64,000 bases of DNA from Octopus vulgaris (GCA_951406725.2 OX597835.1:29698001-29762000); one strand, 5' to 3'; counted from the first letter of the stretch, positions 1,785 through 54,421 are shown. Notes: generated by a model from the sequence alone, not told the origin. Program-made: numbers and translations.

Positions 1785-1947
1785 AAAATGTAACCACATG
1801 TGAATTGTTAGCGGTTTTTTTCCCTCCGTCTTCCTTTTCTCTTAGACTTTCCTTTGTCTCCTGTTTCCGAAGAAGAGCTCTGCTCGAAACGTAAAAATCA
1901 CATTTCTTTCCTCGCTTGAGCGTCTGCTAATACTTGACCATGTACCA
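1785..1947 (+). mobile_element. Family C short element (putative PLE pLTR-derived) ending in (TA)n
   Basis: Homologous to 27245-27447(-), 45347-45534 and 22324-22562; carries a hammerhead-like motif. Confidence 0.7.
1863..1897 (+). ncRNA. Minimal type-I hammerhead ribozyme-like motif (variant core)
   Basis: GTTT-CCGAAGA-A-GAGC(TCT)GCTC-GAAA-CG-TA-AAAA; U4 replaced by C. Confidence 0.5.
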
Positions 1948-2019
1948 TATATATATATATATATATATATATATATATATATATATGGTACGTGTCAAGT
2001 ATATATATATATATATATA

Positions 2020-2463
2020 ACTCTTTTACTTGTTTCAGTCATTTGACTGCGGCCATGCTGGAGCACCGCCTTTAGTCAAGCAAATTGACCCCGGGACTTA
2101 TTCTTTGTAAGCCCAGTACTTATTCTATCGGTCTCTTTTGCCGAACCGCTAAGTGACGGACGTAAACACACCAGCATCGGTTGTCAAGCAATGCTAGGGG
2201 GGTAAACACAGACACACAAACACACACACACACACACACACACACACACACACACATATATATATATATATATATATATATATATATATATATACATATA
2301 TACGACAGGCTTCTTTCAGTTTCCTTCTACCAAATCCACTCACAAGGCATTGGTCGGCCCGGGGCTATAGCAGAAGACACTTGCCCAAGATTCCACGCAG
2401 TGGGACTGAACCCGGAACCATGTGGCTGGTTAGCAAGCTACTTACCACACAGCCACTCCTGCT
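2020..2463 (-). mobile_element. SINE family B, full length
   Basis: tRNA-like head, CORE-like CTTGGGCAAGTG motif, central microsatellite, tail GCGGTGCTCCAGCATGGCCGCAGTCAAATGACTGAAAC. Confidence 0.9.
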
Positions 2464-2483
2464 ATATATACATATATATATAC

Positions 2484-2888
2484 TCTTTTTCTCTTTTACT
2501 TGTTTCAGTCATTTGACTGCGGACATGCTGGAGCACCACCTTTTAGTCGAGCAAATCGACCCCGGGACTTATTCTTTGTAAGCCCAGTACTTATTCTATC
2601 GGGCTCTTTTGCCGAACCGCTAAGTGACGGGGATGTAAACACACCAGCATTGGTTGTCAAGCAATGCTAGGGGGACAAACACAGACACACAAACACACAC
2701 ATACATATATATATATATACATATATACGACCGGCTTCTTTTCAGTTTCCGTCTACCAAATCCACTCACAAGGCATTGGTCGGCCCGGGGCTATAGCAGA
2801 AGACACTTGCCCAAGATGCCACGCAGTGGGACTGAACCCGGAACCATGTGGTTGGTTAGCAAGCTACTTACCACACAGCCACTCCTGC
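2484..2888 (-). mobile_element. SINE family B, full length (tandem with previous copy)
   Basis: Near-identical to 2020-2463. Confidence 0.9.
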
Positions 2889-2927
2889 ATATATATGTAT
2901 ACACATGTATGTGTGTGTATACGCACA

Positions 2928-50162: not shown

Positions 50163-50229
50163 CCGGAAGTTGCCACCAAACGTCAAATCGACTCTCATGA
50201 ACGTCCCTAACTCGTGACGTCAGCACGTG
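50163..50229. promoter_or_regulatory. Cluster of consensus TF sites (ETS, CRE, E-box)
   Basis: CCGGAAGT at 50163-50170, TGACGTCA at 50215-50222, CACGTG at 50224-50229, in non-repeat sequence. Confidence 0.35.
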
Positions 50230-50839
50230 TCGGACACAAACAAATCACTTTGCTTCGTCAATTCATCTGTCATTTCTTTCTTTTTTCCGATCATTCATCT
50301 ATCTGTCTTTCTATCTATTTATCTGTATGTCAGCCTGTCAATCTATCTATCTATCTACCTATCTGATGACATGTATTTATACACACATACATACACGCAC
50401 ACACGCACACACAAATACACACGCACACACAAACGGGCAAACATGCATACATTTGTGTATATATATTCATATAAAATTAAAATGAATTATATATATATGT
50501 GTGCGTGCGTGTGTGTATGTGTATGCATGCATATATGTGCGTATTTATGTATGTAAGTATATAAATATATATTTATTAAAATATATACATACAAACATAT
50601 ACATTGATATACATATACATACATAGGTATACATATTGGTATATATATATATATATATATATATATATATATATATATATATATATATATATATATATAT
50701 ATATATATATATATATATATATATATATATACATATATATGTATATATATATATATGCATATACATATATATATGTATATATATATATGTGTGTGTTTGT
50801 GTGTGTGCATGTATGTATATTTATATATATATGTTTGTG

Positions 50840-51686
50840 TATTTGTGTGTCTTTATTAGTCTCCCCACCATCACTTGACAACCGATGTTGGTGTGTTTAC
50901 GTCGTCGGAACCGATAGAATAAGTAGTAGGTTTACAAAGAATAAGTCCTGGGGTCGATTTGCCCGACTAAAGGCGGTGCTCCAGCATGGTCGCAGTCAAA
51001 TGACTGAAACAAATAAAAGAATAAAATAGTGTGTGTCGGCGATCTGGCAGAACCGCCGGGTGAAATGCGTAGCCGTATTTCGTCAGCCGTTACGTTCTGA
51101 GTTCAAATTCCGCCGAGGTCGACTTTGCCTTTCATCCTTTCAGGGTCGATTAAATAAGTACTAGTTACGCACTGGGGTCGATGTAATTGACTTAATCCGT
51201 TTGTCTGTCCTTGTTTGTCCCCTCTATGTTTAGCCCCTTGGGGGTAATAAAGAAACATATATAACGCAAATGATAAGAAGACTCTTTACTCTTTTACTTG
51301 TTTCAATCATTTGACTGCGGCCATGCTGGAGCACCGCCTTTTTTAGTCGAGCAAATCGACCCCGGGGCTTATTCTTTGTAAGCCCAGTACTTATTCTATC
51401 AGTCTCTTTTGCCGAACCGCTAAGTGACGGGGACGTAAACACACCAGCATCGGTTATCAAGCAATGCTAGGGGGACAAACACAGACACACAAACATACAT
51501 ATATATATATATACATATATACGACAGGCTTCTTTCAGTTTCCGTCTACCAAATCCACTCACAAGGCATTGGTCGGCCCGGGGCTATAGCAGAAGACACT
51601 TGCCCAAGATGCCGCGCAGTGGGACTGAACCCGGAACCATGTGGTTGTTTAGCAAGCTACTTACCACACAGCCACTCCTGCGCCTA
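50840..51686. mobile_element. SINE cluster: B 3' part (+, 50840-51026), A (+, 51037-51256), B full length (-, 51280-51686)
   Basis: Homology to families A and B. Confidence 0.88.
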
Positions 51687-54105
51687 TAAAATTCTTTAAC
51701 AAATAAAATTCTTTAACACATCTTTAATAATTTGTTACAATTGTCTCTGTACCAACTCTATTTACAACGGCAGCTTACGCAAAATTTCAGAGTGAAAATT
51801 TACATAATGTTTACCGTTTCAGACATTTGAGAGGCACTTTATCAGATGTGCATCAAAAGTGTGCTGTCAACTGTGCGTCGTCCAGACCTTGTTTTGTGTC
51901 TTATACAGGAAAGAAACGAAAAAAAAAAAAAAAAAAAGAAAAGAAAGAGGGAAAGTAAAAGAGAGATGGGTAAGTACCGGAACACCAGCGGTGGAAACAG
52001 GATTTTGGAACTAAGGCTTGTGAAGTCGATGTTAGGAAAGAATCGCGAGAAATCAAGTAGGTCGACTACATTCTCCACACACCATCAACTGTAAATACCG
52101 AAACACTGTCTCTAGTCCTTCATCGACGATTTCCCATTCCCCTCTCTGTGGGACACAACTGTATTTCTGAAAACTGGTGGCTTTTGGAGAACAAAACCGG
52201 CTTCTTCAGCCGGGATATAATGGTTTCAAATTTTGGCACAAAGCTAGCAAGTTCAGGGCGGTGGGTAAATCGAAAACATCGACTCCATTGCTCGACAGGT
52301 ATTTTTTTTTTTCTTTATCGACTTCGAAAAGATGAAAAGCAAAGTCAACCTCGGCGGAATTTGAACTCAGAGCATAAAGCTGGATGAAATGTCGCTAAGC
52401 ATTTTGTCGCTAAGCATTACACTTTTATTTTCCCTTACTCCCTCTCTCCCGCTTTTCCCCTTTTCCTTCTCCTTTCGTCTCAAGAATTGGTGTTGTTTAA
52501 CCTCAGGTGAGACTTGATCAAGCAGACTTACGACCCAAACCGTTACAGCAATGACCATCTCACCCTTCCCTTATGTGACATACCCAACGGCCATATTATC
52601 GAAGGTATTTTCCTCAAGATGGTAAGGTGTGGTTTGAAGAAAATTTGTCTGCGGGTGAATCAACCACAAAGAAGCTTCCTCGTTAGATAAAAATCTGAGA
52701 AGCATCGAGAAGTGTCTGTTGTCTGATTCAAACGTGGTGGTCGTGGTGGTCGTGGTGGTATAGTGGGGACAGGAGAGGCGGCGGTGATAGCAGTGATGGC
52801 GACGATGCAGGAGCGATGGTAGTTGCAGTGGTGATTATAGTGATGGTTATGATGGAGGCCAAGGTGGTGGTGGTGGTGGTGGTGGTGGTGGTGATGGAAA
52901 GGGGAAGCAATGGTGATGATGGTTGTGGTCGAGGTGATAGTTGGTTGTGGTGGTGATAGTGGTGGAGGCAGCAGAGGCGGAGGTGATGGCGACAATGGTA
53001 GTTGTGGTGGTGGTGGTGGTGGTAGTGGTTATCTTGGTAGTAGCGGCGGCACCTGTGAGAGCTGTGTCTATGATGATAATAAATTTGATGATATCCGTCG
53101 ACGAAGGTTGACTGGTTGGTTGGCTGGTTGGTTGGTTGGTGTAAAATTAGGGTGGATGTGAGGTTGGGGTGAGGTTGAGGGAGAAGGGGAAGGTGTGCGC
53201 TGTTCTGTATACAGATTAGTTTGGTGGTTCCAATGTTGCGAAGAAGTTTCAGTGACGAAATGAAGATCAGAGAGGGGTAGAGGGGTGGAGAGAGGAGGTC
53301 GAGAGAAGGGGAGTGAGGTGATGAGGAGGGAGAGACGGGGGTGAAAATGGGGTGAGAGAGGGGTATACACATGAACGTATATCTTGACTATATTTATGTG
53401 TATACATACATGCATACACACGTGTTTCTCTGTGTGTGTGTGTGTGTGAAAGAGAGTGCGGGAGAGAGAGAGAGAGTGACAGACAGACAGACAGGTCGAC
53501 AAGCAGACAGGCAGACAGACAGGCAGCAGACAGACAGACAGACAGAATGGGATGTAAAGATCGATACAAATATATTTATTTATCGGACAGCTGAAACTGT
53601 CTTTTGTCAGATTTAAGTGTGGTGACGGTGGCAGTGGTGGCGGCGTCGGCTGTGGCAGCGGCGGTGGCAGCGGCGGTGGCAGCGGCGGTGGTGGTGGTGG
53701 TGGTGGTGGTGGTGGTGGTGGTGGTGGTAGTGGTGGTGGTGGTCATCGTCGTCGTCGTTGAAAGAGGATAAAATGAAACAAATTTTTTTTTAAAGTCAGC
53801 TATGTGATATATACATGAATATGTATACGCGTACGCACATAGGTATTGATATATTGATATGTATATATATATATATATATATATATATATATATATATAT
53901 ATATATATATATATATATATATATATATATACACACAAAGTAAGTTAGGGGTTATGGGTGTAACCCACTAAGGGATAGCATTTATCCAATATACTATTGA
54001 TAATGTACCCAGATTCTTAATACATAAATATTTTTAATTGCTATGCAATTAAGTCATTTATTGTATTAAACGAGTAAAGGTAAGGAAATATTTTTACCTT
54101 AAATT

Positions 54106-54421
54106 TATAATACAAATAAGAAAATGGAGAAGCAAATTTAGTTTGTTCATCAGCTTTCGGATATTAGAATGTTGGATTATTTATTCATTTAACAAAATGA
54201 GAACCTTAATAGCATACATCTATATCTTATAATTCAATACATATAAGATAAGAATACAAATTATTTATCTTATATGTATTGAATTATAAGATATAGTAAG
54301 TGGTATAGTAAATGCTATTAAAGTTCTTATTTTGTTAAATGAATAAATAATTCAACATTCTAATATCCGAAAGTTGATGAACAAACTAAATTTGTTTCTC
54401 CATTATCTTATTTGTATTATA
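54106..54421. repeat. Fold-back inverted repeat, about 145-bp arms, in a microsatellite-flanked insert (53936-54421)
   Basis: 54106-54251 versus the reverse complement of 54265-54421, with one internal indel. Confidence 0.93.

Follow-up and report, generated by a model that had tools for sequence, protein, structure and literature searches.

A 64,000-nucleotide stretch of Octopus vulgaris DNA (GCA_951406725.2 OX597835.1:29698001-29762000, hereafter the window, with positions counted from its first letter) carries eight hammerhead ribozyme-like motifs and six fold-backs. The inserts concerned are probably insertion relics of several families of Penelope-like retroelements (PLEs) whose tail ends lie in TA repeats, a reading to which we give a probability of about three in four. 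A preliminary description had likewise taken them for footprints of several PLE lineages, and this is supported by the presence of a PLE in the window, by the match of the motifs to the minimal hammerheads of PLEs, and by the occurrence of one of these motifs, that of family A, behind PLE open reading frames (ORFs) and in head-to-head fold-backs elsewhere. The same description had treated the motifs and fold-backs as one system of 14 examples, which does not hold: the eight motifs fall into five families, with four motifs in family A, one behind the PLE, and three as decayed singletons, the last four lacking similarity to family A or to each other, and five of the six fold-backs lack a hammerhead.

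Hammerhead-bearing inserts and the Penelope-like element

The hammerhead-bearing features are as follows; motif coordinates run from C3 to H17, and each motif lies on the strand of its insert.

1785..1946, plus strand: family A copy; hammerhead 1867-1893 with U4C; preceded by 164 nt of additional sequence (1621-1784) of unknown origin
20339..22297, minus strand: 5'-truncated, endonuclease-bearing PLE with reverse transcriptase (RT), C-X4-C-X2-C linker, and GIY-YIG-like domain
20462..20487, minus strand: degenerate minimal hammerhead (20487-20462) in the 3' region of this PLE; U3-A8, 2-bp stem II, palindromic stem III, C17
22325..22560, plus strand: divergent family A copy; hammerhead 22362-22389 with A6U and a compensatory stem I change
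27245..27448, minus strand: family A copy; hammerhead 27368-27342 with unchanged core, 4-bp stem I, extra A after A9, ACGU palindrome, and U17
44313..44765, plus strand: single-hammerhead unit; hammerhead 44562-44592 (U3-A8) between 72-nt direct repeats
44985..45334, minus strand: TA-flanked insert; decayed long-stem-II hammerhead 45185-45103 with G at cleavage position 17
45347..45533, plus strand: family A copy; hammerhead 45390-45416 with U4C; 3' end the same as that of the 27245 copy
46883..47819, plus strand: TA-flanked insert; hammerhead 47501-47575 with long, stable stem II and poor stem I; inverted copy of the insert's 3' end at 46893-47034

The preliminary description had claimed at least eight motifs, and all eight are confirmed no more than ~90 nt from where it had placed them. 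Under a strict descriptor that tolerates no more than a single core mismatch, accepts C3-G8 or U3-A8, and requires a stem II of at least 4 bp, a loop of at most 12, and a palindromic stem III, the window gives six matches, whereas 40 block-wise dinucleotide shuffles average 0.15 and none reaches six; five of the six matches are motifs of that description. Looser descriptors are needed for 45185 (8 matches in the window versus 1.3 in shuffles), 20487 (8 versus 1.35), and 47501 (4 versus 0.2), and with two core mismatches allowed the window shows no excess over shuffles (12 versus 9.1). The descriptors were drawn up after the motifs had been seen, so these odds are optimistic, and 20487 (which passes only a loose descriptor), 45185, and 47501, taken as single motifs, are possible chance matches. 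Other matches, at 15460 (inside a short interspersed element [SINE]), 47349, and 60109, were judged to be chance, and the sixth strict match, at 47197, is a probable chance match in AT-rich DNA. No complete hammerhead motif is present in 14 further inserts scanned for core boxes.

The extra A after A9, the palindromic or absent stem III, and the U3-A8 core are traits that match the minimal hammerheads of PLEs published in 2014. The family A hammerhead has the core boxes, the extra base after A9, G10.1-C11.1, and a palindromic 15.2-16.2, and one compensatory helix I change is present among the four window copies; 27368 is the only one of the eight motifs to combine an unchanged core with a 4-bp stem I. 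Stem III of the motifs cannot close alone, with 0 to 2 nt between the palindromic bases, and a two-copy co-fold, a crude test, did not favor the active form (-9.1 kcal/mol for one site versus -24.7 free). Cleavage would be expected in donor RNA, and there only if the RNA is dimeric or a protein assists.

The PLE spans three frames, with two frameshifts (near 21915 and at 21520-21545), and has (TA)n at both ends and the 20462-20487 motif in its 3' region, just as the preliminary description had it. Relatives of ~740 to 780 amino acids (aa) with PF00078, PF26215, and PF01541 align across the three frames, and the element lacks roughly their first 200 residues; one homolog, from Octopus bimaculoides, shares 57% identity over 39% of the query. 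Pfam gives no direct match on the three window pieces, and the order of a PLE-type RT followed by a C-terminal GIY-YIG domain is seen through the homolog alignment. The C-X4-C-X2-C motif of the window ORF and its relatives conforms to the CX2-5CxxC linker between RT and endonuclease reported for Neptune elements, the Nematis linker being likewise Zn-finger-like (PMC8557442, Craig et al. 2021). The element is thus a candidate Neptune/Nematis-type PLE, its clade assigned by the linker motif alone. The window has no second copy of its 3' region that would form a direct or inverted pseudo-long terminal repeat (pLTR) at the 5' end, and 5' truncation is common for PLEs. Apart from a duplicated 5' piece at 22435-22490, there are no further PLE coding remnants in the window or in 20 inserts, and extension of the PLE through family A by a hidden Markov model was rejected as a low-quality run-through.

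Family A is present at a density of 4 copies per 64 kb. A 5' boundary is common to the 1785 and 27448 ends, and a 3' end is common to 27245 and 45533; the other two copies start elsewhere, at 22325 and 45347. No ORF trace or link to a PLE ORF is seen in any of the four. The 22325..22560 copy faces the 5' end of an unrelated PLE head-to-head and is interrupted at 22435-22502, where 49 nt of this PLE end, plus TA, are duplicated; 22 nt of family A are likewise duplicated in the region 22248-22560. Such an arrangement is consistent with a template switch or with a tandem duplication and a subsequent deletion at TA microhomology.

Family A is clearly very abundant in octopus, and the high motif abundance that had been proposed is borne out for this family. 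Short assembly contigs matching 27240-27520 number 21,107 (X1), 17,623 (X3), 5,418, and 286 in four public runs, and summed depth was not used as a measure of copy number. Family A is present in two runs that are possibly RNA, which counts neither for nor against its expression. The U4C change (window position 27367, family A position 4), present in two of the four window copies, accounts for 35%, 36%, 47%, and 70% of contig depth in the four runs and is therefore a subfamily trait rather than stray decay; PMC3088659 reports that U4C lowers in vitro activity yet supports viroid infectivity. G12A (at most 11.5%) and G16.2A (at most 9%) are both at CpG sites. No variant reaches 8% at C3, G5, A6, G8, A9, the extra A, stem II, A13-C15.2, U16.1, or position 17 in the four runs. 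Listed variants occupy 6 of 35 motif positions, compared with 9 of 48 and 7 of 68 flank positions, and this similar share means that the family A ribozyme is conserved no better than its surroundings. Contig depth is highest at the core, a pattern that a core common to diverged subfamilies would produce.

Seven of the eight motifs have a TA tract no more than 260 nt downstream (background 0.18 to 0.28, p below 0.001), as do four of five when counted by family (p 0.004 to 0.025); the 260-nt threshold was chosen after the data were seen, and three positions were off by 2 to 7 nt with the count unaffected. In these seven the tract begins 54 to 247 nt downstream, behind T-rich tails. TA and TATG tracts saturate the window, such that 46% of the non-simple bases lie in gaps of at most 1 kb between tracts. 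Of the proposed use of (TA)n and (TATG)n tracts as landing pads, an enrichment of TA landing is seen, but it is common to other transposons in the window, and the elements at 44093 and 44557 lie outside such tracts. Read in the hammerhead sense, all nine tail segments downstream of motifs are rich in T, as is the outward strand of five of the six fold-backs; this polarity is that expected of PLE 3' ends facing outward, although it is weak on its own.

Among the inserts outside family A, the 44313..44765 unit has its direct repeats at 44333-44404 and 44694-44765, 361 nt apart, and ends in (TAA)n; a 19-nt inverted piece of its hammerhead is present at 44313-44331. A 16-nt inverted copy of the 3' end of the 1785..1946 insert (1931-1946) is located at 1987-2001, beyond a (TA)19 tract. 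These two smaller inversions fit the pattern of the larger one at 46893.

Fold-backs and related loci elsewhere

All six fold-backs previously described are recovered by self-BLAST, with arm identities of 75 to 94%.

13288..13588: hairpin fold-back; arms 137/145 identical; between (TATG)n tracts; no hammerhead
26561..26817: hairpin fold-back; arms 106/123 identical; TA-flanked; no hammerhead
27088..27182: short hairpin fold-back; arms 32/36 identical; no hammerhead
44093..44261: old hairpin fold-back; arms 62/82 identical; outside a TA tract
46893: inverted-copy fold-back in insert 46883..47819; arms 126/169 identical
54106..54421: hairpin fold-back; arms 137/164 identical; no hammerhead

These had been interpreted as inverted duplications of one end of an insert, which is correct for 46893 alone, where the 3' end of a hammerhead-bearing insert is repeated; the other five are hairpins with 9- to 25-nt spacers and no hammerhead. 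The CUGAUGA in the 54106 arm was rejected as a hammerhead because no GAAA follows stem II. The 26561..26817 hairpin has an extra 30 nt on its left side only (26530-26560), and the terminal 29 nt of the 54106 hairpin recur one-sided at 26323-26351, beside (TA)n. The stand-alone hairpins have terminal inverted repeats (TIRs), as do miniature inverted-repeat transposable elements (MITEs), and a TA target-site duplication is indistinguishable inside TA tracts. No second full copy of any hairpin is present in the 64 kb, and no two window hairpins belong to the same family along their length.

A similar pyrimidine-rich word, 15 to 25 nt from TA-rich DNA, ends several inserts (26323-26351, 54106-54135, 23306-23330, and 27160-27180), and these are possibly one family of termini. 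A 14-mer is common to 26943-26956, near the start of a TA-flanked insert, and to 47058-47071, which in another insert lies immediately within the inversion junction (E 0.015 among inserts).

Scanning metagenomes for the family A motif gave 97 loci, or 83 after removal of 14 duplicates, and the genes flanking them look eukaryotic or animal-like; the same pattern has no matches in viral contigs. A PLE profile matches 5 of the 83 loci (L005, L010, L019, L052, and L077; domain E<0.01), every match being on the motif strand and ending 139 to 835 nt upstream, with none in any other arrangement. Pfam searches of 92 ORFs near the motif yield RT matches in L019 and L074 together with host-like genes, and no added GIY-YIG match. 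Of the 78 loci with enough flank, 19 have an inverted copy at most 300 nt upstream, compared with a single direct upstream copy and a single inverted downstream copy, and the 17 loci checked (16 of the inverted set plus L045) form fold-backs of 69 to 250 nt centered next to the core. One 53-locus family includes 3 ORF-linked and 16 inverted copies, so that a single PLE family can give rise to solo, hairpin, and ORF-linked forms. In the independent fold-back loci L008, L015, L047, and L088 the inversion junction is nearly the same and lies 15 nt upstream of the core, which suggests a preferred self-priming or template-switch point.

Stem I, which lay outside the search pattern, covaries across these loci (0.68 paired versus 0.55 shuffled, 29 stem types, 1/2000 shuffles), and two-sided stem I changes number 24 versus 12 (0/500 shuffles) on 20 rows hand-picked for diversity. 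Core conservation or covariation and linkage to PLE ORFs, whose lack would count against the preliminary description by its own terms, are each found in part: helix I covaries across metagenome families but the family A core is no more conserved than its flanks, and the motif follows a same-strand PLE ORF in the five metagenome loci but at none of the four window copies.

Mechanism and competing explanations

The anatomy described above is that of the window itself, and the enzymology proposed here is modeled on published PLE biochemistry. In the most probable course, target-primed reverse transcription, the RT/GIY-YIG protein would nick AT-rich DNA and prime synthesis near the RNA 3' end. Synthesis would usually stop early, leaving most copies with the last 100 to 300 nt, which contain the hammerhead. 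A head-to-head inverted copy, that is, a fold-back with both 3' ends outward, would arise from self-priming or from priming at each of the two target ends. With its place near the 3' end, the hammerhead would be a decaying passenger in dispersed copies. TA-flanked hairpins without a hammerhead may be products of this kind whose truncation lies 3' of the hammerhead; this is the weakest step, and it could as well be wrong as right.

Several observations weigh against PLE relics as the common origin. The PLE's own motif (20487) is the weakest of the eight, and no other window motif is linked to a PLE ORF. Six of the eight motif folds are no stabler than shuffles (|z|<1.2) and 27368 reaches only -1.44; the fold z of 47501 is -3.55, with the other seven between -1.44 and +0.98. 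No strand-switch joint occurs among the 15 of 16 family A joints listed. What the metagenome loci have in common with family A is the core and not the flanks, so that the link between family A and PLEs is one of architecture and not of homology, and just 1 of the 83 has a TA tract within 300 nt. Other elements in the window also occupy TA tracts (the short-TIR element 6027-6228 and the LINE [long interspersed element] piece 18227-19552). The 44093 fold-back has a strand polarity opposite to that of the other five. The five stand-alone hairpins have neither a hammerhead nor PLE similarity, and the case for their PLE origin is therefore circumstantial.

For these five hairpins the strongest competitor is an origin as MITEs or fold-back DNA transposons at TA targets, or as repair fold-backs at TA tracts, which we regard as a serious possibility, albeit the less probable one. 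Their nearly symmetric arms, short spacers, and absence of hammerhead and ORF suit it; TIR DNA transposons are present in the window (6027-6228 inside TA tracts, 22832-23220, and 29024-30314); PMC13282606 reports MITE families and unclassified TIR families in Octopus vulgaris; and the 16-nt inversion across the TA tract at 1931-2001 suggests that repair fold-back can happen. The one-sided recurrence of the 54106 end at 26323, however, is more in keeping with a retroelement 3' end than with a paired TIR, the one-sided 30-nt extension at 26530-26560 resembles a PLE tail, and the outward strands are T-rich in five of six, as are hammerhead tails. PLE ends do form ORF-less hairpins of such size in the metagenome loci, and the window hairpins do not form a family. 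The notion that AT-rich repeat DNA has produced the motifs by chance has very little left in its favor: the post hoc descriptors and the lack of excess with two mismatches leave room for it, and no Rfam hammerhead is found among 52 matches in 44000-47900 or in the best 150 of 659 window matches, the top ones being microsatellite artefacts. The strict excess of 6 over 0.15 and the covariation, position, polarity, and ORF linkage, all of which lie outside the search pattern, speak against it, and for family A the chance reading is largely refuted.

It is unlikely that family A is instead a discrete, ORF-less unit of ~200 bp copied in trans by a PLE enzyme, as a SINE or monomeric retrozyme would be. 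The common boundaries (1785 with 27448, 27245 with 45533), the lack of any ORF trace in the four copies, the contig numbers in X1 and X3, and the head-to-head position of the 22325 copy against an unrelated PLE 5' end agree with such a unit, and a PLE origin of animal retrozymes has been proposed (bioRxiv 10.64898/2026.07.22.740005). But the starts at 22325 and 45347 differ, as 5' truncation predicts, the 1867 copy extends 164 nt farther upstream, the same motif is ORF-linked in other DNA, and the 15 of 16 joints listed include no spacer-free head-to-tail joint, the single return joint having 31 letters, partly TA-rich, in between. Still less probable are canonical non-LTR retrozymes, whose tandem units self-cleave and circularize: the 72-nt redundancy around one hammerhead in 44333-44765 has a period (361 nt) in the retrozyme monomer size range given in PMC7229834, but it also fits a partial pLTR tandem. 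The window has no insert with two tandem hammerheads, and its ribozymes are of the minimal PLE type, with a stem I of 3 to 5 bp rather than the canonical 6-bp helix I. As for the retrozyme-like derivatives of the preliminary description, tandem retrozyme arrays are found neither in the window nor among the 15 of 16 joints listed.

A bolder reading, which we consider improbable, would make family A a discrete, very high-copy, ORF-less SINE-equivalent of ~200 bp for PLEs, mobilized in trans into TA tracts, with an amplified U4C/GUU-site subfamily and with the hammerhead-less hairpins as self-primed, two-ended PLE integration products that record the mechanism genome-wide. If so, the U4C subfamily would be a natural experiment on the role of PLE hammerhead cleavage in transposition.

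Genomic setting and known systems

Simple repeats make up 26% of the 64 kb (masked), which is repeat-rich eukaryotic DNA that also includes SINE-like repeats, LINE pieces, and one mariner; no tRNA genes were found in the window. An abundant SINE-like family with an internal (CA)n(TA)n, at 2020-2885, 5595-5989, 25899-26292, and other positions, is the source of many of the TA tracts. The mariner (29024-30314) has 39-nt TIRs and a 352-aa transposase frame (Pfam Transposase_1 and HTH_48). An L1/Tx1-like LINE at 59086-63998 has frames for a candidate ORF1, endonuclease, RT, and zf-RVT, and the LINE RT fragment at 18227-19552 has TA tracts on either side. The element at 6027-6228 is short, with TIRs, and lies between TA tracts; its ends look hAT-like, and the TA-flanked element at 22832-23220 has inverted ends that are presumably of the Tc1/pogo type. 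A second TA-flanked, T-rich, non-coding family, without a hammerhead, is represented by 34539-34767 and 45588-45778 (78% identical over 177 nt).

If the inserts are PLE relics, a common unclassified short repeat and some MITE-like hairpins of the octopus genome need annotation as PLE ends, and its hammerhead counts would be far above Rfam-model finds; PMC6962438 counts 235 Rfam hammerheads in the giant squid, and for Octopus vulgaris PMC13282606 lists 31 PLE families with recent activity and 65 MITE families. PMC11167929 describes AT-rich cleavage by a PLE and a hammerhead that cuts only with protein assistance and that in vitro insertion can do without. With its frequent U4C variant and its thousands of insertion junctions, family A would be well suited to probing the role of PLE hammerheads. 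We found no description of family A in the literature on octopus or cephalopod PLE hammerheads, although supplements, Repbase, or subscription journals may hold one.

The stand-alone hairpins alone resemble MITEs and fold-back DNA transposons, being non-coding with long inverted arms and TA-associated ends, but differ in that no full-length hairpin family is repeated in the window, one end occurs one-sided, and no transposase element has been matched to them. Animal non-LTR retrozymes (PMC7229834; bioRxiv 10.64898/2026.07.22.740005) are similar in their short, non-coding type I hammerhead units, their relation to PLE pLTRs, from which they are proposed to derive in the latter source, and their dispersed monomers; unlike retrozymes, described as tandem in PMC7229834, the window has no tandem two-hammerhead units, and its ribozyme is minimal rather than canonical.

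The closest likeness is to PLEs. Neptune and Nematis elements (PMC8557442; Arkhipova et al. 2013, PMC3846280) share the RT, Cys linker, C-terminal GIY-YIG domain, 5' truncation, inverted 5' copies with palindromic junctions, microsatellite bias, and solo pLTRs; PMC8557442 also describes a one-sided tail of 30 to 40 bp, and PMC3846280 mobilization in trans. The window differs in having no full-length or two-pLTR copy. The minimal hammerheads of PLEs (Cervera and de la Pena 2014, PMC4209133) have the unpaired base between 9 and 10.1, G10.1-C11.1, the 15.2-16.2 palindrome, and a short helix I, with U3-A8 and long helix II variants. They number ~2,000 to 9,000 per genome, with low in vitro cleavage and copies on opposite strands, and most are solo and "probably related to truncated PLEs." Family A differs from them in its short 4-bp helix II, U17, major U4C subfamily, and density. 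These three sources already document 5' truncation, inverted 5' copies, microsatellite bias, and solo motifs, and the inserts are therefore not a new system; the elements are further members of the known PLE type and not a new class of element.

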